From the NCBI GenBank assembly GCA_025362055.1, contig JANYIM010000183.1, positions 8,972-72,971 of the forward strand: a stretch of DNA of 64,000 nt. Direction: 5' to 3'. Below are positions 2,868-29,112 of the stretch, in pieces. Source of the stretch: Bacteroidota bacterium. GTDB taxonomy: Bacteria; Bacteroidota; Bacteroidia; Chitinophagales; Chitinophagaceae. Each line of letters starts with the position of its first letter. The stretch's first letter is position 1. The position numbers were made by a program, and so were the translations under genes. The notes beneath the pieces were generated by a model. That model was not told where the DNA came from. It did not search any database and saw only the letters and a program-made list of their open reading frames with translations.

Positions 2868-2877
2868 GATCGTGATC

Positions 2878-9674: not shown

Positions 9675-9745
9675 GAGTATATATTTCCGGCAAAAATAGA
9701 ATTATTGATTTGGCGGTTATCAGTCAAAAAAATGATAATAATAAC

Positions 9746-9763
9746 TTAACATTGAGGTAACAA
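9746..9763 (+). promoter_or_regulatory. Putative Pho box (2 repeats) upstream of the porin
   Basis: TAACA at 9747 and 9758, 11 bp apart. Confidence 0.55.
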
Positions 9764-9795
9764 TTATTTCTTATTACATTGCTGAAAATTTTATC

Positions 9796-11097
9796 GTGCT
9801 GAAAAGATTTGCCTTTTTATTATTGCTGTTAATAGCCACGCATTCCCTTAAAGCCCAATTCCTGATGGATATGGTAGATACCAGTAAGGATATAGGAAAA
9901 GGCATGCTATCCATCTATAAAAAATTCGACCATATCCGCATCGGTGGCTATATTCAGCCACAGTTCCAAATGGCGCAGGACAAAGCCGCCAAAAGCTATA
10001 ACGGGGGTGATTTTGCAACGAATGTAAACAACAGGTTCATGATACGCCGGGGCCGTATCCGTTTTGATTATATTCATTTTGCTGAAAAAAAAGGGCCTTC
10101 TGTACAATTTGTCTTCCAGTTTGATGGCACCGAACGCGGCGTGTTCATTCGTGATTTCTGGGGAAGGGTCTTTGAGAATAAATACCAGCTGTTTGCCTTC
10201 TCAGTAGGGATGTTCGCAAGGCCATTTAGTTATGAGCTCAATCTTTCTTCCAGCGACAGGGAAAGCCCCGAACGCGGAAGAATGAGCCAGATCCTCATGA
10301 AAACAGAAAGAGACCTTGGCGCCATGATCTCCTTTGAACCAAGAAAAAAAGACAACCCCCTGCGATATTTAAAAATTGATGCAGGATTATTCAACGGCCC
10401 GGGTTTAGCTGCCACTGCAGATTTCGACAGTCATAAAGACCTTATTACCCGCATTGCATTAAAGCCATACCCCCTTACAAAAAACATTACAGTAAGTGCC
10501 GGTGCATCCTGCCTCGATGGTGGTTTTTTGCAAAACACAAAATATGTGTACACTATAAACAACAATGCTTCGGGCAAAACATTTACCATCGATTCAACAT
10601 CAACCAATAATGGCAAAATAGCTCCCCGCAAATATTATGGTGCCGACATACAGGTAAAAATCAGGAACAAAGCAGGCTACACCGAGCTAAGGGCAGAATT
10701 CATAGCCGGCACACAAACTGCCACATCAGGTACTTCCGAAACCCCGGCAGCACTGCTCACCGGCACTGATGGGTATTATGTCAGAAAATTCAACGGCGCT
10801 TATTTTTACCTGTTACAAAATATTTTTAATCCCCATCACCAACTCATTGTAAAATATGACTGGTACGACCCCAATACTAAAGTGAAAAGCGATGATATTG
10901 GCAAACCCGGAACGGCACTCACGGCAACGGATATAAAATTCGCCACTTTAGGTTTTGGATATATTCACTACGTAAACGAAAATCTAAAGCTGGTTTTATG
11001 GTACGAGAAAGTGACCAATGAAAAAACCCAACTCCCCGGCTTTACTAGCGATCTTAAGGATGATGTATTCACTTGCAGGCTGCAATTCAGGTTTTAA
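9796..11097 (+). CDS. Phosphate-selective porin (OprO/OprP-like)
   Basis: Signal peptide; GGYIQPQFQ, IRRGR, SSSDRESPERGR, RDLG; C-terminal LQFRF; divergent from DUF47-pit. Confidence 0.8.
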   Translation: MLKRFAFLLLLLIATHSLKAQFLMDMVDTSKDIGKGMLSIYKKFDHIRIGGYIQPQFQMAQDKAAKSYNGGDFATNVNNRFMIRRGRIRFDYIHFAEKKGPSVQFVFQFDGTERGVFIRDFWGRVFENKYQLFAFSVGMFARPFSYELNLSSSDRESPERGRMSQILMKTERDLGAMISFEPRKKDNPLRYLKIDAGLFNGPGLAATADFDSHKDLITRIALKPYPLTKNITVSAGASCLDGGFLQNTKYVYTINNNASGKTFTIDSTSTNNGKIAPRKYYGADIQVKIRNKAGYTELRAEFIAGTQTATSGTSETPAALLTGTDGYYVRKFNGAYFYLLQNIFNPHHQLIVKYDWYDPNTKVKSDDIGKPGTALTATDIKFATLGFGYIHYVNENLKLVLWYEKVTNEKTQLPGFTSDLKDDVFTCRLQFRF

Positions 11098-11108
11098 AGA
11101 ACGATCAC

Positions 11109-11186
11109 GTAACATTATGGTAACATTCCCATAACATTTACCTAACGGTAGGTTCATTTTGGGATAACATGTAAGTTGTCTTTTTG
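11109..11186 (+). promoter_or_regulatory. Putative Pho box array with a degenerate -7 element
   Basis: TAAC at 11110, 11121, 11132, 11143 and 11165; TCTTTTTG at 11179. Confidence 0.75.
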
Positions 11187-11202
11187 CATTAAAATTAACA
11201 GC

Positions 11203-14200
11203 ATGAAGACGAACAAATTACTATCTGCACTATTTGCATTTATCCTTTTCACAACAACCGCTTTTGCACAGGAAACAACCAGTACCCTCAACGGCACCAT
11301 TTCTGATGAAAAGGGGGTTGCGGTTTCAGGAGCAACCATTACCGCCATACATGAGCCAACAGGCAATGTAAGCACCACACAAACCAATAAGAAGGGGTTA
11401 TTCAGCATCCCCAATTTAAAACCCGGTGGCCCTTATACCGTAAAAGTTTCTTTTGTGGGTTATAGCGAGGAAAAAATAGACAACTTGAATTTTATACTGG
11501 GAAATAATCCCGATATGAATATTGGTTTGAAGATAAATACCAGGAGCATGAATGAGGTGGTGGTTACAACAAGTAAAAAAATTGCCGGAGCCGGGATCAA
11601 TGTCGGAAGAAATCAATTGAGTACTTTACCAACATTGGGAAGGAGTATCACTGATTTCACCCGGCTTACGCCACAGTCCAATAACAACTCTTTTGCGGGA
11701 AGTAATTTCCGGTATAATAATCTAACCATTGATGGCGCCATCAACAATGATGCGATCGGTTTCAGTAATTCCTTTGGCGGAACAAGTGGCGGAGGCCAGT
11801 CAGGCGCTGCGGGTGCAGGTACACGTACCAATCCTTATAGCATTGACGCCATACAGGAAGTGCAGGTGCAATTATCTCCATTTGATGTAAAGCAGGGAAA
11901 CTTTACCGGTGGTTCTGTGAACGCCGTTACCAAAAGCGGAACCAATACTGTTCATGGTTCAGCATATGTTTATATGCGGGGGCAATCATTGATGGGAAAA
12001 AGTGTTGACGGCCTTAAAACAAAGATCGGATCCGATTTTCATGAATACCAATATGGTGCAAGTGTTGGCGGCCCCATTGTAAAAAACAAGGCCTTCTTCT
12101 TCATAAATCTTGAACAAACACGCCGCCAGGAACCTACATTCTATAATATCGGCGATCCGGGCGCTGCCATCACTCAAACAGAAGCAGACCAGGTTTATAA
12201 TAAATTGAAGGGCTTAGGATATGATGCAGGTGATTATACCGGAGCATATAAACTTTTCACCAACAGTGATAAATTATTTGCACGTTTTGATTTTAAACTG
12301 AACTCAAAAAATAACCTCATGATCCGCGCTATCTATACCAGCGGTTCGGGTAATAACCTGGAACGTTCTTCTACCAACTTCCAGTTTGGATCAACAGATT
12401 TTACACAATACACGAAGAATCTGAACCTCGTTGGTGAACTGAAAACAAAGATCAGCAATAACCTGAACAACCAGTTCAACGTGAGTTATATAAAAGTACA
12501 TGAATACAGGACCTTCCCAGGCACATTGGCGCCTTTCATTGATATTGATAATGGCAGGATATGGGCCGGCACCTGGAGAGAGGCTTCTATCTATAATATG
12601 AAGCAGCAGACCATTGAGATCAGTGATAATGTTACTTATACAAAGGGTATTAACAAATTCACCTTCGGCACACACAATGAATTTTATGATCTTAGTTATG
12701 GATTCATCAATTCATGGAATGGCCGCTGGGAGTATTCGCGTGGTGTTAGCAGTTTCCTCAATAATAACCCAAGCCGTGTGCGTGGCGCTTTTTCCCGCAA
12801 TACCAGTAAGTTAGCAAACGACCGGGAAGCCATCTACAACGATCCGCCAAATCCTTATAAAGTTGCTTTAATCAGCGGTTATGCACAGGATGAAATTTCA
12901 GTGAACAAAAGATTCAAATTAACAGTGGGTGCAAGAATTGATTATTCGTCTGTTGGTAATCAGCCCGGCCTTGACTCTAATCTCAATGCAACCTTAAGGA
13001 CCACGCAAACCACCGCTCCTACTTATTCTAATACAGGATTCAGTGAATTGACCAATACTTACCTCGGCAAAGCAAGTGTTTCACCAAGATTGGGATTCAA
13101 TTTTGATGTGAATGGAAATGGTTCTCTGGTGATCCGTGGTGGTACCGGTATTTTTTTAGGAAGATTACCATTTGCGTGGATGGGTTACGGTTATACGCTT
13201 AATGGAAATACTTATGGAAATATCGACTGGAACAATATCAGTTCCTCTACAACTGTTCCTTTAGCAATAAATCCCTACGGTTTAAAAGATACGGTAACAA
13301 AATATGGTGGCGCTTCAAGAAGCAGCACAAGAGAAATAGATATCGTGGATAATAATTTTAAACTACCAAGGGTATGGCGTACAAACGTAGCCGTAGATTA
13401 TAAATTCGGCAAAGGATACAAAGCAACATTTGATGTGCTGTACACCAAAACTTTATACGATGTAAAATTCCAGCAGATCAATTTATTTGATTCTACACAG
13501 TATTTCACATCGGGCCCAACCCAGTCTCCTATTTATGTTGCAAGGGGTTCCGGTACAAACGGTAAATACAATTTAGCTTATTCAAATGTTTATTTTTTAA
13601 GTAATACCAAAGAAGGGTATCGTTATAATATCACCGGCAGCATCAGCAAGACAACCAATAATATCAAACTGGGGCAAAGTCATGTATTAGACATGAATTG
13701 GAGCCTTGCATATACTTATGGTGTGAGTAAGGATATCAGCAACGGTATCCGTAATTCATGGGAAAGTAATTTTAACCTGAACCCCGCCATCTCTCCTAAC
13801 TCACCGCAATTAGGTTACTCTAATTTTGACCTCCGCAACAGGATCGTTGGAACATTTGGTGGTAGTTTTCACTGGAATAAAATGAATACAACTTCGTTGA
13901 ACTTCTTTTATGCTGGACAATCCGGTAGCCCTTACACGCTCATCTATCAATCGCCTCCGGGAAGTGGTGGATCCAATGCCCCATTGCCTTATATACCAAA
14001 AGATCAATCAGATATTCGTTTAGCTGATTATACTTTGAACGGGACCTTATATACCGCTGCACAGCAATGGGCCGACCTGAATAGTTTTATTGATGGTGAT
14101 AAATACTTGAAAACGCGTCGTGGACAATACGCCGAAAGAAATGGCATGCGCACACCCTGGAACAATGAACTTGACATGAAACTGATGCACGAATTTAAAC

Positions 14201-14496
14201 TGAGCAAGACGAACAGTCAACATAGTTTACAAGTAAGCCTTGACATATTCAATGTGCTTAATTTATTAAGCAATAGTTGGGGGCACGTGAATTTTGTTAC
14301 CAACGTAAACCAATACGATGTGAATTTCCTGAAGTATGCAACCGATGCAAATGGTAAAGCCGCAGGAACGCCTGCAAGCGGTTATTTACCAACATACAAT
14401 TTTATTAAACCAGCCGGTGTTAGCGGACATTATTATACATTAGATCCCATTAATAGTCGCTGGCAGGGACAGTTTGGAGTAAAATATAATTTTTAA
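11203..14496 (+). CDS. TonB-dependent receptor (Oar/OmpA-like type with N-terminal carboxypeptidase regulatory-like domain)
   Basis: Signal peptide MKTNKLL..AFAQ; PGGPYTVKVSFVG; NNLTIDGA; SIDAIQE; GNFTGGSVNAVTKSGTN; VSPRLGFN; C-terminal GVKYNF. Confidence 0.9.
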   Translation: MKTNKLLSALFAFILFTTTAFAQETTSTLNGTISDEKGVAVSGATITAIHEPTGNVSTTQTNKKGLFSIPNLKPGGPYTVKVSFVGYSEEKIDNLNFILGNNPDMNIGLKINTRSMNEVVVTTSKKIAGAGINVGRNQLSTLPTLGRSITDFTRLTPQSNNNSFAGSNFRYNNLTIDGAINNDAIGFSNSFGGTSGGGQSGAAGAGTRTNPYSIDAIQEVQVQLSPFDVKQGNFTGGSVNAVTKSGTNTVHGSAYVYMRGQSLMGKSVDGLKTKIGSDFHEYQYGASVGGPIVKNKAFFFINLEQTRRQEPTFYNIGDPGAAITQTEADQVYNKLKGLGYDAGDYTGAYKLFTNSDKLFARFDFKLNSKNNLMIRAIYTSGSGNNLERSSTNFQFGSTDFTQYTKNLNLVGELKTKISNNLNNQFNVSYIKVHEYRTFPGTLAPFIDIDNGRIWAGTWREASIYNMKQQTIEISDNVTYTKGINKFTFGTHNEFYDLSYGFINSWNGRWEYSRGVSSFLNNNPSRVRGAFSRNTSKLANDREAIYNDPPNPYKVALISGYAQDEISVNKRFKLTVGARIDYSSVGNQPGLDSNLNATLRTTQTTAPTYSNTGFSELTNTYLGKASVSPRLGFNFDVNGNGSLVIRGGTGIFLGRLPFAWMGYGYTLNGNTYGNIDWNNISSSTTVPLAINPYGLKDTVTKYGGASRSSTREIDIVDNNFKLPRVWRTNVAVDYKFGKGYKATFDVLYTKTLYDVKFQQINLFDSTQYFTSGPTQSPIYVARGSGTNGKYNLAYSNVYFLSNTKEGYRYNITGSISKTTNNIKLGQSHVLDMNWSLAYTYGVSKDISNGIRNSWESNFNLNPAISPNSPQLGYSNFDLRNRIVGTFGGSFHWNKMNTTSLNFFYAGQSGSPYTLIYQSPPGSGGSNAPLPYIPKDQSDIRLADYTLNGTLYTAAQQWADLNSFIDGDKYLKTRRGQYAERNGMRTPWNNELDMKLMHEFKLSKTNSQHSLQVSLDIFNVLNLLSNSWGHVNFVTNVNQYDVNFLKYATDANGKAAGTPASGYLPTYNFIKPAGVSGHYYTLDPINSRWQGQFGVKYNF

Positions 14497-14545
14497 TCCT
14501 GGTTCAGTATAGGTTTTCTTAAGCAAGTATTATTATTATCATGTT

Positions 14546-14576
14546 AGCCACCGTTAGTCTTAACGGTGGTTTTTTT
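14546..14576 (+). terminator. Intrinsic terminator after the TonB-dependent receptor
   Basis: AGCCACCGTTA-gtct-TAACGGTGGTT followed by a T run. Confidence 0.85.
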
Positions 14577-14610
14577 ACACTTTGATAAAGTTGTGAGTAA
14601 CCGCGTTTTC

Positions 14611-14666
14611 ATAACATTCACATAATATTCCCCTAACCATCCCTTAACACCGGGATAAGATATTGT
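14611..14666 (+). promoter_or_regulatory. Putative Pho box array
   Basis: TAACA 14612, TAATA 14623, TAACC 14634, TAACA 14645, TAAGA 14656. Confidence 0.7.
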
Positions 14667-14671
14667 GCATG

Positions 14672-14763
14672 AGTTTAGTAAAAGGAATTGAATTAGATCT
14701 CCTTAAGCAAATAGCAAGTTTCTCATGCTTTAGTCACCGTTATTCTTATCGGTGGCTTTTTTT
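14672..14763 (+). ncRNA. Candidate Pho-regulated small RNA 1
   Basis: Lies between a 5-repeat array and an intrinsic terminator (14732-14763); paralogous to the upstream receptor 3' UTR. Ends are estimated. Confidence 0.45.
14732..14763 (+). terminator. Intrinsic terminator
   Basis: AGTCACCG...CGGTGGCT followed by a T run. Confidence 0.75.
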
Positions 14764-14780
14764 ATACCTTTAAATAAAAA

Positions 14781-15182
14781 ATGCCGCGTATCTGCTCCTT
14801 CCTGTTCGTTGTTATACTATTTTCTTCCTGCAATAAACCTACCGGCATCAAAGAACTCGTATCAACTGCCGATAGTGTTGCCATTAATTTTTATAAAGGA
14901 GATGGAAGTATGGACACCGTTGTGAAAGTAGTTATCCTAAAAGATAAAAAACAACTGGAAGATCTCTCTGGTTATATAGAATCGGGTACTACAAAAAATA
15001 CCAACTGCGGTTATGATGGTTCACTTCATTTATTCAAGAATGATGCAGTGACCAGGGATATCGACTTCAGGATGAATGATGCGGGTTGCATGCATTTTTC
15101 GTTTACAATGGATAGAAAAATCTTTTGTACAAAATTATCAGCAGCTGCGAAACAATTTTTAGTAGCTATTTCAAAGCAATAA
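14781..15182 (+). CDS. Hypothetical lipoprotein
   Basis: Lipobox FSSC; A-rich region before the ATG; CGYDGS motif. Confidence 0.7.
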   Translation: MPRICSFLFVVILFSSCNKPTGIKELVSTADSVAINFYKGDGSMDTVVKVVILKDKKQLEDLSGYIESGTTKNTNCGYDGSLHLFKNDAVTRDIDFRMNDAGCMHFSFTMDRKIFCTKLSAAAKQFLVAISKQ

Positions 15183-15293
15183 CGATACTACACCCATAAA
15201 AGGTTTGCAAAACGTTTTGTCGATGGTTGCTACACCCTATAGATTATACATTGCCCTTTGCAAATAGCTTTTGGATGCAGAAAATAAAATTCA

Positions 15294-15349
15294 TTAACGT
15301 TAAGCTAATCTTTCCTTTACAATTGGGTTACACCGGATACTGTTCTTTG
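15294..15349 (+). promoter_or_regulatory. Putative Pho box array with a degenerate -7 element
   Basis: TAACG 15295, TAATC 15306, TTACA 15317, TTACA 15328; GTTCTTTG at 15342. Confidence 0.65.
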
Positions 15350-15363
15350 CAAAACCTCTTCTA

Positions 15364-16452
15364 ATGAAACGACTCTTGATCGTATTTGCATTTTTTGCAA
15401 ATCCTGCATTTTCGCAGCAAGTCACCTGTCAAAACATCTTTATCATTACTACCGATGGATTCCGCTGGCAGGAATTATTTACCGGCGCCGATTCTGCCAT
15501 AATCTCCAATCCCGATTATGTAAAAGATTCCGCCGCATTGGCATATATGTATGGAGGCAAGACACCAGCTGAACGCAGAATGAAACTGATGCCTTTTCTA
15601 TGGAATTATATTGCCGCAAAGGGGCAAGTGTGGGGCAACCGCAATTATGGAAACAATGTTTCTGTAGCAAACCCTTATCATCTTTCATACCCTGGATACA
15701 ATGAATTACTCACTGGTTTTGCCGACCCGCAAATGATAAGCAACAGGAAAAGAAATAACCCTAATAGCAATTTGCTGGCCTATTTAAATTCCTTACCAAA
15801 ATATAAGAACAGTGTGGCGCTGTTTGGTTCCTGGAAATTGTTCTCTTATATCGTCAACGGTTCTGTAAATAAAATACCCCTTAATTGTGGTTACCAGGCG
15901 ATGGAAGAAGATTCGCTTTCACTGACAGAACAGGCAGTTAATTATCTTGAGCAAACCAGCGAAAATAACGGCGCCCCTACACGAAGTGACCTGCTAACTT
16001 TTGCATTGGCCACAGAATATATAAAGAAAAATCATCCGCATATTGTTTACATCGGTTTTGGCGAAACAGATGAATTTGCACACCATGGCCAGTATGATAA
16101 TTACCTGAACCAGGCCAACCAGTTTGATAAATTTTTAGCGCAGTTGTGGAGTTTGATACAACAGGATGACTTTTATAAGAACACTACCACTTTATTTATC
16201 ACTACAGATCATGGCAGGGGTAGAAGGCCCGCCAAATGGACAACACACGGCCCATTCATTGGAGGATCAGATGAAACATGGATGGCGCAGCTGGGCCCCA
16301 ATATCCCTGCATTGGGAGAAGTAAAACAAAAAATTGATTATACTACCGAGCAATTTGCACAAACAATTGCAGGGTATTTGGGCGAGACCTTTATTGCAGA
16401 GCACCCGATTGCAGAACCGGTATATTCCTTTTTTACAAAGAAGAAAAATTAA
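15364..16452 (+). CDS. Exported alkaline-phosphatase-superfamily metalloenzyme (phosphatase / phosphodiesterase)
   Basis: Signal peptide; IITTDGFRWQE, SYPGYNELLTG, GETDEFAH and TTDHGRG metal-ligand motifs. Confidence 0.85.
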   Translation: MKRLLIVFAFFANPAFSQQVTCQNIFIITTDGFRWQELFTGADSAIISNPDYVKDSAALAYMYGGKTPAERRMKLMPFLWNYIAAKGQVWGNRNYGNNVSVANPYHLSYPGYNELLTGFADPQMISNRKRNNPNSNLLAYLNSLPKYKNSVALFGSWKLFSYIVNGSVNKIPLNCGYQAMEEDSLSLTEQAVNYLEQTSENNGAPTRSDLLTFALATEYIKKNHPHIVYIGFGETDEFAHHGQYDNYLNQANQFDKFLAQLWSLIQQDDFYKNTTTLFITTDHGRGRRPAKWTTHGPFIGGSDETWMAQLGPNIPALGEVKQKIDYTTEQFAQTIAGYLGETFIAEHPIAEPVYSFFTKKKN

Positions 16453-17519
16453 CGGGTAGTTGCAGTACTTAACGTTGTAAAACGTATGAGTGGTTTTACA
16501 GGGCCCGCAATTTTCTTTTGCTTTTGGTTACCCGGCAAAACACTCTCCAATATCTTACTTATTATCGCGTCTGTTTCATCCCGAAAATCTACCTGCAGAT
16601 TTGGCTTTTGAACAAGCCAGTTCTCAATTTTGTGAAGATGTTTCTTTTTCAGGTTCCTGATCACAGGTACACCAAATGTTTCTAAAGCCGCTGCATTGCA
16701 ATATTGTTCATACTGTTGTTTCATGGGTATCACCAATAATTTTTTCCCCATAAAAAGCGCTTCTGCAGGAGTTTCAAAGCCGCTACCCGTGATGATTCCC
16801 TCACAATTGATAAAACTACTTGTGAAATCAAAATTGTTGACCGGTCGTACCCAGCAATTATTTTTTCCATAAGACCTTTTGCAATGCTGCGAAAAAATAT
16901 GCCATTGAATGTTTTTGAATGTAGAAAATATTTTCACCAGTTTATCTTCATGGTAAGCAGGAAGGTACACAGTATAGTGTCCCAGGTTACGGATATAAGC
17001 ATTGCGTATCTCCTTTCGTATCACAGGCGTAAAGATATTTTCATCATATTGTTTAAAATGAAAACCAATACCGGTTTTACAGGGAGCATAGTGCCTCAAT
17101 ACCAGCCATGCCATCGGGTCGAACCATTCGGGGCGTGGTGCATTTTTATTCAACATGGCATATTGGTGGCTCATCGCCACGCAGGGAATATCTTTTATTT
17201 TACTGGCCCATGCGCTGATGGGTTCAAAATCGTTGATCACAAGATCATATTCGTCAACTGGAAATGACCTGATCTCATTCAAAAAACGTTTTGATTGCAT
17301 TTTCTGGAGTGTTGCCAAAAAATCTATGCCTCCCTTTTTGCCTGTTTCAAAACTTAAGCCTTTGCGGCGGTATTTAATAAAATGATCCAGCTCAACATTT
17401 GATTTCGCGCCACTGACCAGGATATCCAGCTCGCACTTTTTTTCAAGATACGGGATGATCTCATTGGCTCTGCTGATATGCCCGTTGCCGTTAGCCTGTA
17501 TGGCGTATAATACTTTCAT
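16449..17519 (-). CDS. Glycosyltransferase, GT-B fold (MJ1255/VC2487-like), paralog 1
   Basis: MKVLYAIQANGNGHISRA, INDFEP, HYTVYLP, GFETPAEAL, PMKQQYEQYCNA. Start reassigned to 17519; perfect -7 element TAATTTTG at 17545-17538. Confidence 0.88.
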   Translation of the reverse strand: MKVLYAIQANGNGHISRANEIIPYLEKKCELDILVSGAKSNVELDHFIKYRRKGLSFETGKKGGIDFLATLQKMQSKRFLNEIRSFPVDEYDLVINDFEPISAWASKIKDIPCVAMSHQYAMLNKNAPRPEWFDPMAWLVLRHYAPCKTGIGFHFKQYDENIFTPVIRKEIRNAYIRNLGHYTVYLPAYHEDKLVKIFSTFKNIQWHIFSQHCKRSYGKNNCWVRPVNNFDFTSSFINCEGIITGSGFETPAEALFMGKKLLVIPMKQQYEQYCNAAALETFGVPVIRNLKKKHLHKIENWLVQKPNLQVDFRDETDAIISKILESVLPGNQKQKKIAGPVKPLIRFTTLSTATTR

Positions 17520-17590
17520 AATTAAAATGGAGTTATGCAAAATTAAGTTGAGGCTATTGTTCAACCGAAACCACACTGTTACTAAAATGA

Positions 17591-17657
17591 TAAACATTTT
17601 TTTAATGATTTGGTAACAGCATTTTTATAATGCGGTAAAATATTATCCCGATTTTTA
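17591..17657 (+). promoter_or_regulatory. Degenerate putative Pho box array
   Basis: AAACA 17592, TAATG 17603, TAACA 17614, TTATA 17625, TAAAA 17636. The region is AT-rich, so support is weaker. Confidence 0.4.
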
Positions 17658-17662
17658 TCTTC

Positions 17663-17763
17663 TTAATTACACATCCCCGTCCTGCGGGGTCTTCATAAAT
17701 CGGTTAGTATTTATCTCTGTGGTCTTGCAGGTAAGGGCGGAACAAAAATTCCGCTCTTTTTTT
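17663..17763 (+). ncRNA. Candidate small RNA 2
   Basis: No ATG on the + strand; 5' hairpin CCCCG-TCCTG-CGGGG (17675-17689); terminator at 17734-17763 with no upstream + strand gene to terminate. Confidence 0.45.
17734..17763 (+). terminator. Intrinsic terminator
   Basis: AGGGCGGAA-caaaaa-TTCCGCTCT followed by a T run. Confidence 0.8.
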
Positions 17764-17764
17764 G

Positions 17765-17820
17765 GTAACATTGCCTTAACATGAAGTTAATACCCTGGTA
17801 AACCGGCATCTATAGCTTGC
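17765..17820 (+). promoter_or_regulatory. Putative Pho box array upstream of the PAP2 gene
   Basis: TAACA 17766, TAACA 17777, TAATA 17788, TAAAC 17799; TAGCTTGC at 17813. Confidence 0.72.
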
Positions 17821-17850
17821 AGGTAATTAATAACCCGTTAAATACATTGC

Positions 17851-18546: not shown

Positions 18547-18595
18547 ATATTTTTACCATCGTATCAGTTAGTAATTGAGTGGGTAGGCATTTTAG

Positions 18596-21083: not shown

Positions 21084-21940
21084 TATTGTTTTAATAAGTT
21101 GAATTCGTCCACAAGATTATCAAACAGCTGATTATTGTTCAACTCTTCTTCCCCCGGTTCGTTTACGATCATGTTAAGCATTTCAGTATCATCAAAGTGA
21201 TACACCTTCCATTCATTTCCTGCATATTCCAGGGCAGTTAAATTTTCGATCCAGTCGCCGCTGTTGAGGTATATTATTTTGCCATGTTGATTTTGGATCT
21301 CTCTTATTTCCGGCTGATGAATATGACCACAAATAACATAATCGTAATGATTGCTGATACCTATATCTGCTGCCGTTTGTTCAAAATTATTTATGAATTT
21401 TACAGCGCCCTTTACACTGTTCTTTATTTTTTTTGATAAAGAGAGTTTTCCTTTCTTGAATATTTTTTCGGAAATAAAATTTGCAATACGGTTTATATGT
21501 ATCAGCGTATCATATCCAACAGCGCCCAGTTTAGCCAGCCACTTACCATGTTGCATCGTTACGTCAAACACATCGCCATGGAAGAACCAGGCAGTCTTGC
21601 CATTGTCCAGTTTCAGTATCACTTTGTTGACGATCTGGAATGATCCCATTTTAAAACCAACGAATTTCCTCAGCATTTCATCGTGGTTACCGGTAACATA
21701 ATAAATTTTAACGCCTTTACTAACCCAGTGCATAATATGCTTTACCACTTTCATGTGCGATTTTGGCCAGTAGCGCTTGCTGAACTGCCAGATGTCAATG
21801 ATATCGCCGTTTAATATTACAGTTTTGGGTTTCACAGACTTAAGGTAATGAAGCAGTTCTTTAGCATGGCATCCATAAGTACCAAGGTGTACATCAGACA
21901 GTACCAATATATCCAGCTTCCTCTTTTTTATTTTATCCAC
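21083..21940 (-). CDS. LpxH-family metallophosphoesterase, PlcP-like (phospholipase C of lipid remodelling)
   Basis: SDVHLG, GDIIDIW, GNHD, HGDVFD, CGHIH, NSGDWIE motifs; GTG start. Confidence 0.85.
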   Translation of the reverse strand: MDKIKKRKLDILVLSDVHLGTYGCHAKELLHYLKSVKPKTVILNGDIIDIWQFSKRYWPKSHMKVVKHIMHWVSKGVKIYYVTGNHDEMLRKFVGFKMGSFQIVNKVILKLDNGKTAWFFHGDVFDVTMQHGKWLAKLGAVGYDTLIHINRIANFISEKIFKKGKLSLSKKIKNSVKGAVKFINNFEQTAADIGISNHYDYVICGHIHQPEIREIQNQHGKIIYLNSGDWIENLTALEYAGNEWKVYHFDDTEMLNMIVNEPGEEELNNNQLFDNLVDEFNLLKQ

Positions 21941-22041
21941 TATTGGATCTTATAAAATTTCAGGGGCGTATAAAATGCTGAGAGCATTGGGAGGAAGATC
22001 CTGACAGAAAATTCCAGGAAAAAGAATTTGATATTTTTCAT
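21940..22041 (-). CDS. Unannotated 33-aa small protein or leader peptide (MKNIKFFFLEFSVRIFLPMLSAFYTPLKFYKIQ)
   Basis: ATG at 22041. Its TAG shares one base with the GTG of the next gene (TAGTG). It starts ~20 nt after the predicted transcription start. Confidence 0.5.
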   Translation of the reverse strand: MKNIKFFFLEFSVRIFLPMLSAFYTPLKFYKIQ

Positions 22042-22067
22042 AAAATGATGTTGGGTTAGTACAAAAG

Positions 22068-22123
22068 CAAAATGACATCATCGATATAAACAAATCATTA
22101 CGCCAATGTTACGGGACTGTTAA
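22068..22123 (-). promoter_or_regulatory. Putative Pho box array and -7 element for the phosphoesterase operon
   Basis: Plus-strand TGTTA 22118, TGTTA 22107, CATTA 22096 (TAACA, TAACA, TAATG on the minus strand); TCATTTTG at 22075-22068. Confidence 0.68.
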
Positions 22124-22170
22124 CTGTGGATATCATCTGTATAAACCCGGTGTTATCAACATGCAATGAA

Positions 22171-22270
22171 CAAAGTTAAATTGCAGCAAATCCATACTCA
22201 ATAAGGGTTACAACAGTTGTGTTAATTTAAAGTTACCTAATAGTTACCTGATGGTTACTTAAGCGTTATC
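22171..22270 (-). promoter_or_regulatory. Five-repeat putative Pho box array, orientation ambiguous
   Basis: GTTA at 22221, 22232, 22243, 22254, 22265; perfect minus-strand -7 element TAACTTTG at 22178-22171. Confidence 0.65.
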
Positions 22271-22347
22271 AAATCAACAACACTTACCAGCAATTATCCT
22301 TTATAAAAAAAAACTACAAGATTTGCATCTTCATAAATCTACCAAAC

Positions 22348-25125
22348 ATGACTGTTTTAATTACTCATTGCATCAGGCGATCTTTATTAGTATTTGCCCT
22401 TTTATTTTCAGTACTGACTTCATTTTCACAAACTATTAAAGGAAAGGTAACCGACAGTAAAACCGGTGAACCTTTGGTAGGGGCAACCGTAAAATTAGAA
22501 GGCACTCCCTACACTACACTTGTAAGACTGGATGGTAGTTTTAGTTTCACCAGAATACCGGCAGGCACTTATAAAGTGAACATTACTTTCCAGGGTTATA
22601 AAAACACTTCCAATGAAACCTCCGTTACCATAACAGGAAATGAGAACAAGGTCGCCAATTTTACACTGGAGCCTTCGGCGACCCAACTAGAGTCTGTTAC
22701 CATCACTTCAGGCGCTGCAACAGATAAAGATGTAAATGCAAGGAGGCTTGAAAAAATTGCTGACCCGGTGTTGAATGTATTGTCTGCAAGAACCCTGCAA
22801 CTACTACCCGACATTACTGTTGCAAATGCACTACAAAGGGTTAGTGGTGTAACCATAGAAAAAAGCAGCTCTGGAGAAGCGCGCTACCCTATCATCCGTG
22901 GTATGGAAAAAAGATATATCAACACTTTGGTCAATGGTATTAAGATACCAAGTCCCGATAATAAAAACCGTTTTATACCGCTCGACCTGTTTCCTTCTGA
23001 ATTGCTTGAAAGGCTGGAGGTAAGTAAAAGCCTCACGCCATCCATGGAAGGAGACGCTATCGGTGGCACCATTAACCTTGTAATGAAAGATGCACCCCGG
23101 GATAAATTACTACAGGCAAATTTTGCGATCGGGTACAATAATATTTTCGGGCAGCAAGCATACCAGAAATTTGATAAGAGTAGCATGAATAAGCAATCAC
23201 CCGCAGAGGTCAATGGCAGTACTTATGTTGCCACGCCAAAAGATTTTTCAGTTGCTCATCTTAATTATACTGAAAGAAAATCACCCATTAACACAACTTT
23301 TGGTTTAACTTTTGGTGATCGTTTTGGAAAGGATAAAAAATGGGGATTTATTGTCTCCGGTAGCTATCAAAATATCTTTCGGGGTACTACATCCAACTTT
23401 TTCCTGCCTAATCCGCAACCAGGTTTGAATAATATTCCTTTATTTTCGGACCTCCAGCTACGCAATTACTCTGTACAAAGCCAGCGCATTGGATTGAATG
23501 GTAAGCTCGACTACCAGTTAAACAAGAACAACAAAATTTCTTTCATTAGTACGTTTGTGCGGTTAAATGATTATCAAACACGTATCGTATATGATACCGT
23601 GGCTTTAAATTCACTTGTTGATAACTGGCAAAGGAGCACCTGGCAATACCAGTCAATTTACAATAACACTTTACAAGGTATTCATAAACTTACTCCCTCT
23701 TTAAAAATCGATTGGAGTTTAGTGTATTCCATTGCAAACAACCATGTACCCGATCAATCGCAATTTATTCATGAATATCCGATCGTAGCTACCAACCTTA
23801 CTGCAGATAAGCTTCAGAAAATGTCCCGCATCTGGCTACACAACAGTGATAAGGATTTCTCGGTTTATGGGAACATCACAAAAAATTTCAAACTTTTACA
23901 TAAAGGAATGGAGTTGAAGTTTGGCGGTTTATTAAGGAACAAGACCAGGGATAATTTTTACAATTCCTATAGTTTAGATCCGCAGTTAGGCGCATTGTAT
24001 ACGAACATCAATAATGCAGCATTCATTTTCAATCCAACCAGTTCTGGTACGCCAAGCCTGAATGGTAATAATTATACTTTTAAAGAAAACATATCTGCCG
24101 GTTATATTCAGGGCAAATGGCAATTGACCAATAAATTAGAAGCCCTGGGGGGTGTAAGAATTGAATATACTCACCAGGATTATGAAACCCAATTGAGTAA
24201 GGACGTAGATGCAAAATCCGGCACCATCACCTACACTGATGTGTTACCAAGTATACAATTCAAGTATGCCCTAAAGAAAAATCAAAACATAAGATTAGTT
24301 TATTACAAAGCGCTGGCAAGACCGGGTTTTTCTGAATTAATTCCTGACGGGACAGATGGTGAATTTTTTAAAGAAATAGGAGACCCTGTAAATCTTAATC
24401 ATTCGCTTGCAGATAATTTAGATCTGCGCTATGAGTTATTCCCTTCCGGCGCAGACCAGTTGTTATTAGGCATATTTTATAAGAAAATACAAGACCCTAT
24501 CGAGATCTCAGCCGTAAAGCCTTTGAACATCAATAACCTGTATTTGCAACCGGTGAACATTGGTAAGGCGACCAATTACGGTTTTGAAGCTGTTTATACA
24601 AAATATTTTGGCGTGTTCGGTATCTCGGCAAACTATACTTATACAAAATCCAGTATCACAAATGATAGCATGATCTATTCTTACAGAAACACTTCCGGAG
24701 CGATCGTTTCGAAAAGAGTATCAGAAACACGTCCATTACAGGGACAATCCAATCATATCGGCAACCTGTCACTAATATACAAGAATCCTAAAATTGGTTT
24801 AGATATTCAAACGGCCTTGGTCTATACCGGTGAAAGAGTATCCTTTATCAGCCCATACCTGGGGTTAAATTATTGGCAGGCACCTACTACACAGCTGGAT
24901 CTTTCTTTTGAAAAAAGGATTGTAAAGAAGTTCACGGTTTATGGTAAAGTAAACAATATTACCAATGCCCCTTTCGAGATATCGTTACATCAATCTTACA
25001 ATGTTTATTTAGCCTCCAGCGGTTCAAGGGCACTGGCATTGCAATCTGATCCGGATAACAAGATCATCATTCAAAAAGACTATTACAAAACTTCTTACTT
25101 ATTTGGGCTACGTTATAAATTTTAA
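22348..25125 (+). CDS. TonB-dependent receptor
   Basis: Signal peptide; GKVTDSKTGEPLVGATV; plug LQRVSGV..IIRG..PLDLFPSELLERLEVSK..GGTINLV; C-terminal GLRYKF. Confidence 0.92.
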   Translation: MTVLITHCIRRSLLVFALLFSVLTSFSQTIKGKVTDSKTGEPLVGATVKLEGTPYTTLVRLDGSFSFTRIPAGTYKVNITFQGYKNTSNETSVTITGNENKVANFTLEPSATQLESVTITSGAATDKDVNARRLEKIADPVLNVLSARTLQLLPDITVANALQRVSGVTIEKSSSGEARYPIIRGMEKRYINTLVNGIKIPSPDNKNRFIPLDLFPSELLERLEVSKSLTPSMEGDAIGGTINLVMKDAPRDKLLQANFAIGYNNIFGQQAYQKFDKSSMNKQSPAEVNGSTYVATPKDFSVAHLNYTERKSPINTTFGLTFGDRFGKDKKWGFIVSGSYQNIFRGTTSNFFLPNPQPGLNNIPLFSDLQLRNYSVQSQRIGLNGKLDYQLNKNNKISFISTFVRLNDYQTRIVYDTVALNSLVDNWQRSTWQYQSIYNNTLQGIHKLTPSLKIDWSLVYSIANNHVPDQSQFIHEYPIVATNLTADKLQKMSRIWLHNSDKDFSVYGNITKNFKLLHKGMELKFGGLLRNKTRDNFYNSYSLDPQLGALYTNINNAAFIFNPTSSGTPSLNGNNYTFKENISAGYIQGKWQLTNKLEALGGVRIEYTHQDYETQLSKDVDAKSGTITYTDVLPSIQFKYALKKNQNIRLVYYKALARPGFSELIPDGTDGEFFKEIGDPVNLNHSLADNLDLRYELFPSGADQLLLGIFYKKIQDPIEISAVKPLNINNLYLQPVNIGKATNYGFEAVYTKYFGVFGISANYTYTKSSITNDSMIYSYRNTSGAIVSKRVSETRPLQGQSNHIGNLSLIYKNPKIGLDIQTALVYTGERVSFISPYLGLNYWQAPTTQLDLSFEKRIVKKFTVYGKVNNITNAPFEISLHQSYNVYLASSGSRALALQSDPDNKIIIQKDYYKTSYLFGLRYKF

Positions 25126-25146
25126 TTATCCTGTTAATTTAATAAT

Positions 25147-26559
25147 ATGAAAAAGAATACCTTACTCCTTAGCATCATTTCAACGATTCTCCTGTTTACT
25201 TCCTGCAAAAAACAGGCAGATAACAAAGATCTGTGGAAGGCGGTAGTGACCCCTGCATCTCCTATTAGCGATGCCACCTGTTTAAAAGGTACGATCAAAG
25301 GCACTATGCTTACCGGCAAAACATACACGGTATGCGGTGATATCTTTGTAAATGATGGTGATACCCTTGTCATCCAGGAAGGGGTTACCCTGAATTTTGG
25401 TTTGGACGCAGTCACCAATGCCCCGGTTGGCTTAGGTGTTAAGGGTACATTATTATGTTTAGGTTCAAAAGATAAGCCTGTGGTGATCACTTATCCCGGG
25501 GTTACAAAAACAGACCAGCTTGGCGCAAATCCTAATACCGATCCTGCATTACAAGGAAGGTGGACAGGTATCATCGGCGCTCCTAATTGTCCGCTGATGG
25601 TCATTAAATGGACACATATTGAATTTGGCGGCGCTACGATCAGCTTATCCATGAAAAATTTTACCAGTGGTTCCAGTCCATATCCTTTGTATTTCGCAAA
25701 TCCTGCCGGTGTTTTTGTATTGGAAGATTCCTGGGTATATGGCAGTGTAGATGACCCGTTCCGTATCAATGGTGGCAAGATCTCTGTAATGAGAAATACT
25801 TTTGAAAAATGCGGCTACACAGGTGGTGAGGCAATGAATGCAAAAGCAGGCACCATCGGTGATTTTGCTTATAATCTTTGTATTGGGATGGCTACTAACG
25901 GGCCTAAGCTATCAAATATAAATGTTGGCGTTGGTGTACCGGGTTCAAATGTAAGAATGTATAACAATACCATTGTTAACTGTGGTTATCGCAGGTCTGC
26001 GGCGGGCCGTGGGGGCTCTATCAATTTTGAACAAGGTGCCGGTGGTATGGCTTATAATAATTTAATTGTGAATTGTAAATTTGGATTACGTGTAGTTCAA
26101 AATCCAATAGCGGATACTGCTAACCTGCGGTATGGGTACAATTGGTATTATGCCGATTCTGTTGCAGTGGCAAGCCAGTTCATTCCTTCCCTTTCAGTTA
26201 GTACAGCTATCAGTCAGCCACAGGAAACGGATATTCCAAAACCTTCCACTTATTTACCAACAGGTTGGACGGTTGGTAGTGTATACACTGCACCTGCTTA
26301 CGTTATTGGTATTAATAATCCACAGTTCATAAATGCCCCGCTACCATTACCTGCAGGGTTAAAACTTGCAGACATAGTTGTAGTAGGTAGTTTTAATTTT
26401 GCTTTAAAACCTTCGTCACCTTGTATTGGTGCAGGATTCACGGGTTTTACTCCTCGTGCAGACGTACCCGTTGATCTGAAATACGGCGCCACAGAAATAA
26501 CAGCACCGGGTAAAGATATTGGCGCTTACCAGAGTAATGGCAGGGGAAATCAACATTAA
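25147..26559 (+). CDS. Surface lipoprotein with a predicted right-handed beta-helix; probable partner of the upstream receptor
   Basis: Lipobox FTSC; TLVIQEGVTLNF, G-x-W-x-G-I, YNNTIVN / YNNLIVN repeats, SPCIGAG..DIGAYQ tail; 21 bp after the receptor gene. Confidence 0.75.
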   Translation: MKKNTLLLSIISTILLFTSCKKQADNKDLWKAVVTPASPISDATCLKGTIKGTMLTGKTYTVCGDIFVNDGDTLVIQEGVTLNFGLDAVTNAPVGLGVKGTLLCLGSKDKPVVITYPGVTKTDQLGANPNTDPALQGRWTGIIGAPNCPLMVIKWTHIEFGGATISLSMKNFTSGSSPYPLYFANPAGVFVLEDSWVYGSVDDPFRINGGKISVMRNTFEKCGYTGGEAMNAKAGTIGDFAYNLCIGMATNGPKLSNINVGVGVPGSNVRMYNNTIVNCGYRRSAAGRGGSINFEQGAGGMAYNNLIVNCKFGLRVVQNPIADTANLRYGYNWYYADSVAVASQFIPSLSVSTAISQPQETDIPKPSTYLPTGWTVGSVYTAPAYVIGINNPQFINAPLPLPAGLKLADIVVVGSFNFALKPSSPCIGAGFTGFTPRADVPVDLKYGATEITAPGKDIGAYQSNGRGNQH

Positions 26560-26619
26560 AAGTATATTCGTATTTAAAGCGTATCGTTCAAAACCCTTTT
26601 GACTTAAATAAATAATTGT

Positions 26620-27168
26620 ATGAAATTTTTGGGTATCACTTTTCTTTGCCTGTTCTTTTTTACCAATATCACCTACTCCCAAACTACAAAAAATCCGCTG
26701 AAAGTAGTTATTATAAGGCATGGTGAAAAACCAAAGATCGGTGACAATCTCAATTGCCAGGGACTTAACAGGTCACAATTAATCCCGGCAATGATCGTTT
26801 CAAAATTTGGAGTACCTACATTCAGCTATATCCCTTCCATAGGTGCAGATTCATCTACAAAACATGCCAGGATGTTTCAAACCATTACGCCACTAGCGGT
26901 AAAGTATGGCCTTACCATCAATAGTAAATTTGTTGGTAAAGATTCAACGGGCCTTGTTACAGATATTCTAAAAAAGAACGGGATAGTATTGGTAGTATGG
27001 GATCATAAAAGCATTGTCCCCATCATACACGCATTTGGTATAAACGATCCGCTATTGAAATGGGCTGATGATGATTTTGATAGTATTTGGATAATAACTT
27101 TCAATAATGGAATGGCCCTGCTCACAAAAGATAAGGAAAACCTGAAGCCAGCAGTTGATTGTAATTAA
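26620..27168 (+). CDS. Exported histidine phosphatase superfamily protein
   Basis: Signal peptide; IIRHGEKP (RHG motif); R-x-x-QT; VWDH. Confidence 0.8.
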   Translation: MKFLGITFLCLFFFTNITYSQTTKNPLKVVIIRHGEKPKIGDNLNCQGLNRSQLIPAMIVSKFGVPTFSYIPSIGADSSTKHARMFQTITPLAVKYGLTINSKFVGKDSTGLVTDILKKNGIVLVVWDHKSIVPIIHAFGINDPLLKWADDDFDSIWIITFNNGMALLTKDKENLKPAVDCN

Positions 27169-27173
27169 TAAAC

Positions 27174-28223
27174 TTAATCTTTCCTGCTCTGCAGCGTGAA
27201 TCCAAAGGTACTCCCCACATCTATCTTACTCCTTACATGGATCGTTTGTCCGTGCGCTTCAATAATATGTTTGCAGATAGATAAGCCTAAGCCACTGCCG
27301 CCCACTTTCCGGCTGCGTGCCAGGTCGGTTCTGTAAAAGCGTTCGAATATGCGGTGCAAATGTTCTTCAGCGATCCCGGCGCCATCATCGCTTATTTCAA
27401 TCAATATCCTTGCACCATCCACTTTATAGAAACTTGATTCAATGGTGCCATTTTGTTTTCCGTATTTAATGGCATTGTCCACGAGGTTGATCAATACCTG
27501 CCGTATCTTTTCCTTATCAGCAAAAACGGTCAGGGGCAATTCACATCCTTTTTTGATGATACATTTGATCTCTTTTTCATCAGCCTTGATGGATAAAGAA
27601 TCGTACACTTCTTTCAACAGGTCTTGTATCACGAAGCCGTCTTTCAGCAACAACTGTTCGCCCATCTCCAGCCGGGTGATCTCATCCAGGTCATCCACGA
27701 GGTTCACCAAACGGTCAACATTACGCGAAGCGCTTTGCAGAAATTTTTTATTCACCTCTGCTTTATCCAAAGCACCATTAAGCAAGGTATCTACATAACC
27801 CTGTATGGCAAAGATGGGTGTCTTCAGTTCATGACTCAGGTTCTGCAGGAATTCTTTCCGGTAAGCTTCATTTTGCTGCAACATTTCAATCTCTGCTTTT
27901 CGTTGTTCAGCCCAATTTTCCACATCTTCCCTTACCTCATCAATGCTTTTTTGCGGTAAGATATTCTTATAATAGAATTCCTCCCTTTTACTGGCCTTGG
28001 TTTGATAAATGAATTTATAAATGAGTTTTATTTTCCGGTAGATGAAAGTTTGCAAAGTGTACAAGATCAAACCATAACTACCCAGGTAAGTGATCACAAA
28101 AGACAACAACGCGATCCACCATACCGGTTTAATAAAATAAATACCCAATGCGATCGGTATGGATACAGCCAATGCCGTTAGTGCGGATAATTGCTGTGGC
28201 GAAAGATTTTTTGAAGAAGGCAT
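27174..28223 (-). CDS. phoR: Sensor histidine kinase, PhoR-like
   Basis: Two N-terminal TM helices; SHELKTP H-box, NLVDNAIKY, DDGAGI, IFERFYR, GGSGLGL; phosphate-gene context. Confidence 0.8.
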   Translation of the reverse strand: MPSSKNLSPQQLSALTALAVSIPIALGIYFIKPVWWIALLSFVITYLGSYGLILYTLQTFIYRKIKLIYKFIYQTKASKREEFYYKNILPQKSIDEVREDVENWAEQRKAEIEMLQQNEAYRKEFLQNLSHELKTPIFAIQGYVDTLLNGALDKAEVNKKFLQSASRNVDRLVNLVDDLDEITRLEMGEQLLLKDGFVIQDLLKEVYDSLSIKADEKEIKCIIKKGCELPLTVFADKEKIRQVLINLVDNAIKYGKQNGTIESSFYKVDGARILIEISDDGAGIAEEHLHRIFERFYRTDLARSRKVGGSGLGLSICKHIIEAHGQTIHVRSKIDVGSTFGFTLQSRKD

Positions 28224-28355
28224 TTTTTATTGCTGGTTGATAGTCCCTGGAGAAATCAATGCGAAAGTAAATAACTATTAGGTTCATGTGCGTGCCAATT
28301 TCTCCCCTTAGGGAACGTACCCTTTTAGGGATGGCGGCAAGGGCAAAAACCTGGG

Positions 28356-29039
28356 TTACATTTCAAACTTATAACCCACTCCCTTTACCGTAGTGATACA
28401 ATCCATATTCAATTTCTGGCGGATCTTACGGATGTGCACATCAATGGTACGGTCGCCTACAATTACTTCGGTACCCCATACCTGGTTTAATATTTCGTTG
28501 CGGAGAAAAACCTTGCCGGGTTTACCGGCCAATAATGCCAGCAGTTCAAATTCTTTGCGTGCCAGTATAATGTCTTTACCCTGGTAATTGATAATGTATT
28601 TCTCCCGGTCGATCTGCAGGTCACCGATCTGCAATAAGCCGGTATCTTCCTTGCTAACACGGCGGAACAATGCATTTACCTTGCTTACCAAAACCTTTGG
28701 ACTTACGGGTTTTGTGATAAAATCATCTGCGCCCGTCTCTAAACCTTTTACTTCAGTCCCTTCATCACTGAGGGCCGTAAGAAAAATGATCAGGGTATCA
28801 TTAAAGGCCGGTTGTAAGCGAAGGATATTGCATACTTCAATGCCATTCTTGCCGGGCATCATGATATCGAGGATAATAAGATCTGGTTGAAATTTTTTCG
28901 CAAGGTCTATTGCCTCATTACCGTTTTTAGCAGTGATCACTTCGTAGCCCTCGGTTTGCAGATTATATTGGATAATTTCAAGTATATCCGGCTCATCATC
29001 TGCAATTAATACTTTCTTAACATTGTTAGATACACTCAT
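28356..29039 (-). CDS. phoB: OmpR-family response regulator, PhoB/PhoP-like
   Basis: IADDE, LDIMMP, FLTA, GADDFITKP, EFELL, RTIDVHIRKIR, TVKGVGY motifs. Confidence 0.82.
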   Translation of the reverse strand: MSVSNNVKKVLIADDEPDILEIIQYNLQTEGYEVITAKNGNEAIDLAKKFQPDLIILDIMMPGKNGIEVCNILRLQPAFNDTLIIFLTALSDEGTEVKGLETGADDFITKPVSPKVLVSKVNALFRRVSKEDTGLLQIGDLQIDREKYIINYQGKDIILARKEFELLALLAGKPGKVFLRNEILNQVWGTEVIVGDRTIDVHIRKIRQKLNMDCITTVKGVGYKFEM

Positions 29040-29045
29040 ACATTG

Positions 29046-29112
29046 CAAAAATAGTCTTTACCTTCAATCAGAGCGGCGGTATGGCCCCCCTTTTGTATTA
29101 TCAAATTGTTAA
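29046..29112 (-). promoter_or_regulatory. Promoter of the regulator gene: -7 element plus a 2-repeat box
   Basis: TATTTTTG at 29053-29046; minus-strand TAACA (29111-29107) and TAATA (29100-29096). Confidence 0.5.

Follow-up and report, generated by a model that had tools for sequence, protein, structure and literature searches.

Analysis of a 64,000-nucleotide stretch of DNA from a Bacteroidota bacterium (GenBank assembly GCA_025362055.1, contig JANYIM010000183.1, forward-strand positions 8,972 to 72,971; called the window below, with position 1 as its first letter) revealed an island of genes at 7.7 to 29 kb that carries arrays of direct repeats with a TAAC core and an 11-bp period. By Pfam assignment, the island holds a phosphate-starvation gene set, including two TonB-receptor-like proteins and two glycosyltransferases. 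The window lies on a 2.9-Mb assembly that is 88% complete, and close homologues of its genes were found in records labelled Chitinophagaceae, many of them Ferruginibacter.

Array A (9733..9765, plus strand; cores at 9736, 9747 and 9758) is positioned before the gene of an OprO/OprP-like phosphate-selective porin (oprP; 9796..11097, plus strand; PF07396, E = 3.9e-5), with a -7 element 23 bp on. The genes encoding a PhoU-like DUF47 protein (9027-9674, minus strand; PF01865) and a Pit/PHO4 phosphate transporter (7716-8924, minus strand; PF01384) are divergent from this array. Array B (11107..11186, plus strand; cores 11110-11165, one degenerate; -7 element 11179-11186) is followed by the gene of a TonB-dependent-receptor-like outer-membrane protein, TBDR1 (11203..14496, plus strand; PF25183, PF13620). 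Behind array C (14609..14667, plus strand; cores 14612-14656) come a -7-like element (14660-14667), about 90 bases free of open reading frames (ORFs), a hairpin with a U tract and a lipoprotein-like ORF of 133 amino acids without a Pfam match (14781..15182, plus strand). Array D (15292..15349, plus strand; -7 element 15342-15349) lies upstream of an alkaline-phosphatase-superfamily enzyme gene (15364..16452, plus strand; PF01676, PF01663), which is followed by an MJ1255/VC2487-like glycosyltransferase gene (16449..17519, minus strand; Pfam/NCBIfam match). Array E, weak and doubtful (17589..17657, plus strand), has a TTTA-type -7-like element in phase at 21 bp, and array F (17763..17819, plus strand; -7-like element 17812-17819) precedes the gene of a PAP2-family phosphatase (17851..18546, plus strand; PF01569).

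Array G (22068..22125, minus strand; -7 element 22075-22068) faces a likely operon (18805..22041, minus strand) of a 33-amino-acid leader ORF, a PlcP-like metallophosphoesterase (plcP), a glycosyltransferase and a GH1 glycosidase. The five units of array H (22217..22271, minus strand) are inverted and stand 57 bp upstream of a -7 element, with its G at 22325, that belongs to a gene group encoding a TonB-dependent receptor (TBDR2), a 470-amino-acid lipoprotein (FII-like, weak) and a 182-amino-acid ORF (22348..27168, plus strand). The following genes encode a PhoR-like histidine kinase of 349 amino acids (27174..28223, minus strand; HisKA and HATPase_c only in Pfam) and an OmpR/PhoB-family response regulator (28356..29039, minus strand), the likely binder of the arrays. 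Array I (29093..29114, minus strand) consists of two units before this regulator gene (phoB) and is a likely autoregulatory site.

Statistical support and genome-wide distribution

A first-pass annotation, made from the sequence alone, had listed nine arrays of cores in exact 11-bp steps. Every coordinate that it listed carries TAAC or a core with one mismatch, at exact steps; seven of the nine arrays proved to be far beyond chance and an eighth, at 29096, is retained by its conservation, but the array at 17592 is doubtful. Two details were corrected. The array at 9747, described with two cores, has three units starting from 9736. The array at 22221 had been left unmarked for strand; its cores read GTTA on the plus strand, so that it is a minus-strand array pointing away from the TBDR2 gene at 22348.

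A training-free count of same-strand TAAC pairs in 9.7-29.2 kb gave 11, 7 and 6 pairs at distances of 11, 22 and 33 bp and zero to two pairs at each of 27 other distances. In the rest of the 2.9-Mb assembly, the same three distances gave 83, 93 and 94 pairs, without excess over the range of 62 to 174. The genome scan proposed in the first-pass annotation was performed with a position weight matrix built from the seven arrays, leaving out one array at a time, over 5.8 million positions outside the island. Counted at the best unit number of each array, the arrays at 9747, 11110, 14612, 17766, 22096 and 22221 were equalled or beaten by no outside position and the array at 15295 by one. As many as 530 to 6,481 outside positions scored as high as array 17592 and 127 to 1,187 as high as array 29096, neither of which is significant alone. 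The seven highest scores of the genome, 25 to 40 bits, all fall in the island, these sites being the training sites of the matrix, and the best site outside reached 20.5 bits. The earlier statement that no comparable arrays occur outside 9.7-29.1 kb consequently extends to the whole 88%-complete assembly.

An origin by chance in AT-rich intergenic DNA would agree with the two arrays, E and I, that are not significant alone. It is contradicted by the periodicity, by the leave-one-out scan and, as described below, by footprinting at TBDR1, the phase to the promoter and the pstS loci, with controls at periods 10 and 12. Chance is refuted for seven of the nine sites, site I is backed by conservation, and the probability that we leave to this explanation is negligible.

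Consensus and promoter geometry

From 315 repeat units, spaced 11 bp apart, a consensus of nS(G/T)TAAYATTn was derived. Promoters of Bacteroidota have the geometry TAnnTTTG at -7 and TTTG at -33. A TTTG whose G sits 21+11n bp from the core T was found in 55 of 88 distinct arrays, and 56 of the 70 TTTG occurrences at these arrays have this phase. Only 9 of the 55 arrays have a -7 octamer that starts with TA; for upstream TTTGC elements genome-wide, the figure is 144 of 430. In the window, the distance from core T to the -7 G is 21 bp for the arrays at 11110 and 15295, 32 bp at 22096 and 54 bp (21+33) at 29096; it is 20 bp at 17766, 22 bp at 14612 and 23 bp at 9747. By the promoter geometry given above, the last units would overlap the -33 region, as expected of an activator that rescues a weak promoter. 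A sigma-70 promoter scan was uninformative for Bacteroidota and overlooked the terminator of the candidate small RNA (sRNA) described below.

Conservation in other Bacteroidota

The arrays are conserved, share a consensus and usually keep a constant phase relative to a -7 element of the TTTG type. Twenty stretches around orthologues of the regulator (370,608 bases) contained 18 arrays of at least 15 bits at period 11, in comparison to four at each of the control periods of 10 and 12, and these arrays precede oprP, TonB receptors, a phosphatase, plcP, a glycosyltransferase and phoB. The counterpart of array G was also found before the plcP orthologues of loci L011, L028, L029 and L037. A search for TBDR1 orthologues gave 67 loci, 58 of which were scored upstream. 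An array of at least 15 bits was present at 52 of the 58, with 2 and 2 at the control periods. The four non-Bacteroidota loci among the 58 were array-negative; 52 of the 54 Chitinophagaceae-type loci carried an array, all 52 on the coding strand.

The motif also follows pstS. Among 30 pstS loci across Bacteroidota, 7 have an upstream array of at least 18 bits on the pstS strand, compared with 0 and 0 in the controls, and one of these 7 belongs to the window's own family. At a Flavobacterium phoBR locus, arrays were detected before oprP (24.6 bits), the gene of the TonB-dependent transporter (TBDT; 29.1 bits) and the lipoprotein gene (19.0 bits), and the TBDR1 orthologue has one of 18.0 bits. 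A strict array-plus-TTG pattern returned one uninformative match in the Flavobacterium genome, and PhoX was not found in this genome.

Link to the regulator and to phosphate

The best NCBIfam match of the regulator is PhoB (226.6 bits), and the protein is 55% identical to the regulator of the Flavobacterium locus, which shares the oprP/phoR/TBDT synteny. The two-unit site before phoB recurs in 15 of the 25 loci listed, all of them among the 17 closest, and often as four units. Because it is conserved before phoB and in phase with the -7 element, site 29096 is kept as likely autoregulatory in spite of its low score. The Pho-box reading of the first-pass annotation gains support from the phosphate-starvation genes of the island, from the way in which the motif follows their orthologues and pstS, and from the conserved phoB site. 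Judged from these sequence data, the arrays are very likely the Bacteroidota Pho box. It is highly probable that they act as promoter elements, likely bound by the regulator encoded at 28356-29039, that switch on scavenging genes and a predicted sRNA.

In the proposed mechanism, which draws on the biology of PhoB, the PhoR-like kinase would phosphorylate the regulator when phosphate is scarce, and the winged-helix domains of the regulator would align head to tail, one per unit, over the -33 region. Once bound, the regulator would bring RNA polymerase to promoters in which the consensus TA is usually absent from the -7 element. The inverted distal array before TBDR2 and the two-unit phoB site, with likely autoregulation, would be two variants of this arrangement. 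Array C would drive a non-coding RNA of about 90 nt, which probably acts by base pairing through a conserved single-stranded core.

Direct repeats at an 11-bp period are a shared trait of the OmpR/PhoB family, and the arrays might instead be operators of another OmpR-family regulator or signal (envelope stress or another nutrient), the regulator of the island being a bystander or other sensor. The genome has five further OmpR-family members, the PhoB cut-off of NCBIfam is missed and oprP is uninduced in Flavobacterium johnsoniae. We nevertheless regard this alternative as improbable: the arrays of the whole genome are confined to the phosphate island, arrays occur before pstS in other families and before the regulator's own gene, and the F. 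johnsoniae phoBR locus is induced by phosphate depletion. The recognition-helix sequences of the five other OmpR-family proteins differ from that of the regulator.

Expression data are available for F. johnsoniae, with 95 phosphate-induced genes (PMC8115612); counterparts of the window genes were assigned there by domain, locus and synteny. According to the parts of PMC8115612 used here, phosphate depletion induces the phoBR-linked TBDT, lipoprotein, glycosyltransferase and PhoB, as well as PlcP, a PF01676 enzyme and a PF13620 TBDT. Table 1 of that paper gives log2 fold changes of 8.0 for the TBDT, 9.9 for FII, 5.4 for the glycosyltransferase, 8.6 for PlcP, 3.1 for PhoB, 4.3 for the PF01676 enzyme and 7.7 for the PF13620 TBDT.

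Several observations weigh against the reading of the arrays as Pho boxes that control one set of genes and an sRNA. The PhoB match of the regulator stays below the NCBIfam cut-off of 296.2 bits, and the matches of the kinase to PnpS and PhoR are likewise below their cut-offs (220.5/334.2 bits for PhoR). The oprP gene of F. johnsoniae was not phosphate-induced in Table 1 (-1.3, not significant; PMC8115612); unlike what this would lead one to expect, the related Flavobacterium has a canonical array before oprP. Upstream of the plcP and alkaline phosphatase orthologues of Flavobacterium, the matrix detected no array of at least 12 bits, and 23 of the 30 pstS loci have none of at least 18 bits within 1.5 kb, which an operon-internal position of pstS may explain. 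Array E is not significant and has one supporting homologue only. A target search with the candidate sRNA in 2,218 crudely called start regions gave 69 duplexes at or below -20 kcal/mol, compared with 24 to 111 for 12 shuffled cores. The genomes compared are related and not independent samples, so that the counts overstate independence. Finally, a search of the assembly, which is 88% complete, detected no pstC; the sole PstS-like gene of the genome lies among unrelated ORFs and has no array (7.5 bits). If Pst is lacking, the adjoining Pit/DUF47 pair is a candidate phosphate-sensing partner of the 349-amino-acid PhoR-like kinase.

A candidate small RNA behind array C

Array C would serve a non-coding unit and not the next ORF. 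This unit, sRNA1 (14674..14763, plus strand; 5' end inferred), consists of a core at 14700-14727 followed by the terminator hairpin, and is a candidate Pho-driven sRNA. [quoted passage not shown]

The core alone, which holds no promoter information, was compared with all species genomes and gave 103 matches. In the 69 with Bacteroidota titles, a terminator stands behind the core in 62, and an array of at least 15 bits lies within 200 bp upstream in 38 and one of 10 to 15 bits in a further 11. The remaining 34 matches had no array of at least 15 bits and one terminator. Ten of the 69 copies occupy the 3' UTR behind a gene whose protein ends in W..WTxF; in the 3'-UTR copy of L007, the host gene encodes a lipoprotein behind an oprP-TBDR pair. 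Among 47 distinct hairpins, anchored on the loop, every one keeps two central positions of the stem paired, with exchanges among CG, GC and AT. The unit thus combines a predicted promoter of its own, the lack of a conserved ORF and an intrinsic terminator with a covarying stem. A tiny antisense ORF in the core was rejected, as its frame differs between copies.

A sequence-only RNA model was built from 11 copies, the degenerate TBDR1 copy being in its training set. In the genus, it matched 85 of 149 other genomes, almost always a single time. Among 149 genomes of the family, it gave 7 weak matches (E between 1e-4 and 8e-4), none of the seven, two of them mis-located, with an array of at least 15 bits. 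Ferruginibacter paludis (locus L073) has the RNA together with arrays B and C. Among the 29 best genus loci, which overlap the set of 69 copies and include one mis-located locus, 20 carry an array, compared with 0 and 0 in the controls, and 3 are in 3' UTRs; one genus 3'-UTR copy lies behind a TBDR1-like gene. An initial RNA pattern gave 5 matches in 400 family genomes against 3 control matches, and a looser pattern was too unspecific in the genus genomes. A search of 9-30 kb against Rfam 15 (4,227 models, FopS not confirmed among them) returned only a chance snoRNA (E = 0.68).

The unit could also act in cis, as an attenuator or leader for the downstream gene or as a conserved module made of a terminator and a tail that binds protein. 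The 133-amino-acid ORF comes next in 24 loci, 10 copies lie in ordinary 3' UTRs and the target searches for sRNA1 came up empty. Against this, the downstream genes vary, comprising the alkaline-phosphatase-superfamily enzyme, PAP2, TBDR and plcP besides the 133-amino-acid ORF, and several copies face a convergent phoR; a trans-acting RNA is favored over an attenuator for these reasons. In addition, 38 of the 69 copies lie a few tens of bases behind a Pho promoter of their own, without an intervening ORF; the copies share no conserved reading frame; conservation covers about 28 nt ahead of the hairpin and does not extend to the 5' part; and the 133-amino-acid gene of L011 has its own TAnnTTTG element. 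A cis element is thus unlikely, though it retains more weight than the rival explanations of the arrays themselves, and the 133-amino-acid ORF is possibly outside the regulon.

AUG-anchored seeds of the core revealed no target class beyond an effect of M-K/M-R starts, and pairing to phoB 5' regions gave no signal. As targets, oprP and TBDR2 beat 30 of 30 shuffles across orthologues and were not accepted, since the energies are weak and 19 genes were tested. Elsewhere in Chitinophagaceae, Pho arrays are followed by short ORF-free units (L070:8354 and 13081, L086:8447, L051:5724, L087:11968), most with a terminator and with a looser likeness to sRNA1; related Pho sRNAs may exist beyond the genus.

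Departures from a single uniform regulon

The description of the island as one regulon needs to be qualified at array C, at the glycosyltransferase gene 16449-17519, at pit/DUF47 and at array H. No same-strand array was found for the glycosyltransferase gene. Array H points away from TBDR2, its likely target gene. The pit and DUF47 genes face away from array A, whose distance of 23 bp to its -7 element is 2 bp off the usual phase and is also 23 bp in close relatives. The DUF47-pit promoter (region 9027-9781) has a perfect minus-strand TAnnTTTG, located immediately past array A at about 9690-9697. Array A may activate oprP or act on pit; one possible role would be the repression of this low-affinity transporter gene.

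For the majority of TBDR2 orthologues, the higher-scoring of the upstream arrays is likewise on the minus strand, though usually weak. Sixteen loci were examined, the window included; in 11 of the 12 that have a TTTG, the distance from the inverted array to at least one TTTG is 1 to 3 modulo 11. This suggests a second, distal and inverted promoter class before TBDR2. At two or more TBDR2 loci, the minus-strand array plausibly serves a divergent gene. In L028 (5755, minus strand), the TBDR2 orthologue has an upstream array that is directed toward another OmpR-family two-component pair, which suggests that a regulator is under Pho control in that genome.

We see about even chances for a wider proposal concerning Ferruginibacter-like Chitinophagaceae. 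Here a PhoB-activated, single-copy sRNA would have switched between two modes of expression, from its own Pho-box promoter or from the 3' UTR of Pho-induced outer-membrane operons, and would repress translation of envelope-protein mRNAs in phosphate starvation, alongside an inverted class of PhoB promoters. If true, this would add to Bacteroidota a phosphate-regulon sRNA not found in the literature searched, and a second, inverted PhoB promoter class.

Relation to known systems

In the excerpts of PMC4415409 used here, the Pho box consists of 11-nt direct repeats with a consensus that varies by taxon, such as CTGTCAT units in Escherichia coli and GTTCACC in Streptomyces coelicolor. The window arrays share with that description two or more tandem 11-nt units at a fixed distance upstream of a core promoter element and before phosphate-acquisition genes. 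They differ in the TAAYA core, the usual number of 3 to 5 units, the phase to a -7 TTTG, the one inverted array and a pstC not found in the assembly. On all features that can be judged from sequence, the window sites qualify as Pho boxes. Closest in letters, as far as the consulted part of PMC1906773 describes it, is the cyanobacterial SphR box CTTAACCT, with at least three tandem units of 8+3 bp; a coding-strand TAAC core, the 11-bp period and at least three units occur in both. The SphR box belongs to another phylum and promoter type, and the window unit ends in CATT and often has G before TAAC.

The PhoBR operon and PUSIV of F. johnsoniae (PMC8115612, main text) share with the window phoB, phoR, oprP, a TBDT with its lipoprotein, a glycosyltransferase, PlcP and a PF01676 enzyme, which the window brings together in a single island that also holds pit and DUF47. 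The 470-amino-acid lipoprotein near TBDR2 and the one encoded at the Flavobacterium phoBR locus are 23% identical. That main text gives no binding motif ("motif" and "binding site" occur zero times). Bacteroides fragilis PhoB binds the pst promoter directly in an electrophoretic mobility shift assay with a 512-bp fragment (PMC3547664, text in part); no sequence of the site was found in that text, where "consensus" and "motif" occur zero times. Neither a Bacteroidota Pho-box sequence nor a Pho sRNA in Bacteroidota was found in the literature searched, which was mostly open-access and excluded supplements.

Two known sRNAs resemble sRNA1 in part. PhoS of Bacillus (PMC11522486, abstract) is likewise short, located at a Pho locus and in a 3' UTR, and induced by the phosphate regulator, an induction that is predicted for sRNA1; it targets phoP mRNA in another phylum, and the likeness drawn here is one of description. 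FopS of Bacteroides thetaiotaomicron (PMC11697453, excerpts) also has a conserved single-stranded stretch followed by an intrinsic terminator, with stand-alone and 3'-UTR members, and the core of sRNA1 contains an anti-AUG stretch. FopS has 12 to 15 copies per genome with canonical promoters and represses susC mRNAs, whereas sRNA1 is nearly always single-copy, lies behind a Pho array and has no Rfam match. The candidate resembles FopS in layout and PhoS in predicted regulation.

The plcP operon (18805..22041) would have a role in lipid remodelling, by analogy with the lipid-remodelling unit of plcP and a glycosyltransferase described in PMC4796936 (excerpts). Its hydrophobic 33-amino-acid ORF (21940-22041, minus strand), which has no Pfam match, overlaps the plcP start by one base, and similar 33-amino-acid ORFs with an equal stop-start overlap lie 5' of plcP in L028, L029 and L037. 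This ORF may encode a small, translationally coupled membrane protein.

Bacteroidota play a major part in phosphorus cycling in soil, the rhizosphere and fresh water, and their PhoB regulon has so far been mapped by expression. A motif phased to the -7 element would make phosphate regulons readable from uncultured genomes, provide exact probes for binding assays and reveal non-coding regulon members that gene-based studies overlook. The switch itself is conventional, and the conserved candidate sRNA is the less ordinary part. To our knowledge, classical sRNA chaperones are lacking in Bacteroidota, and in such a phylum the unit of about 90 nt offers a way to test whether phosphate starvation is controlled post-transcriptionally.

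Other non-coding units

A possible second small RNA, sRNA2 (17663..17764, plus strand; z = -3.3), lies behind array E; it is ORF-free and has a terminator at 17733-17758. A strict pattern matched 1 of 300 other genus genomes and no metagenome. Another search gave 15 genome matches and one true homologue, homologous matches with identical letters being counted once. This homologue (L040:10438-10545) has an 18.5-bit array and a matching layout. The evidence is too little to call sRNA2.

Outside the island, a different non-coding unit was seen repeatedly (G000:C143:4914, plus strand; G000:C117:22619, plus strand; L071:1702, minus strand); it combines an anti-start-codon stretch with a terminator. 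Its predicted duplex partners include several SusC-like genes of about 1,000 amino acids, and 8 of the top 50 partners exceed 750 amino acids, compared with a background of 6%. This unit is a candidate FopS-like RNA.

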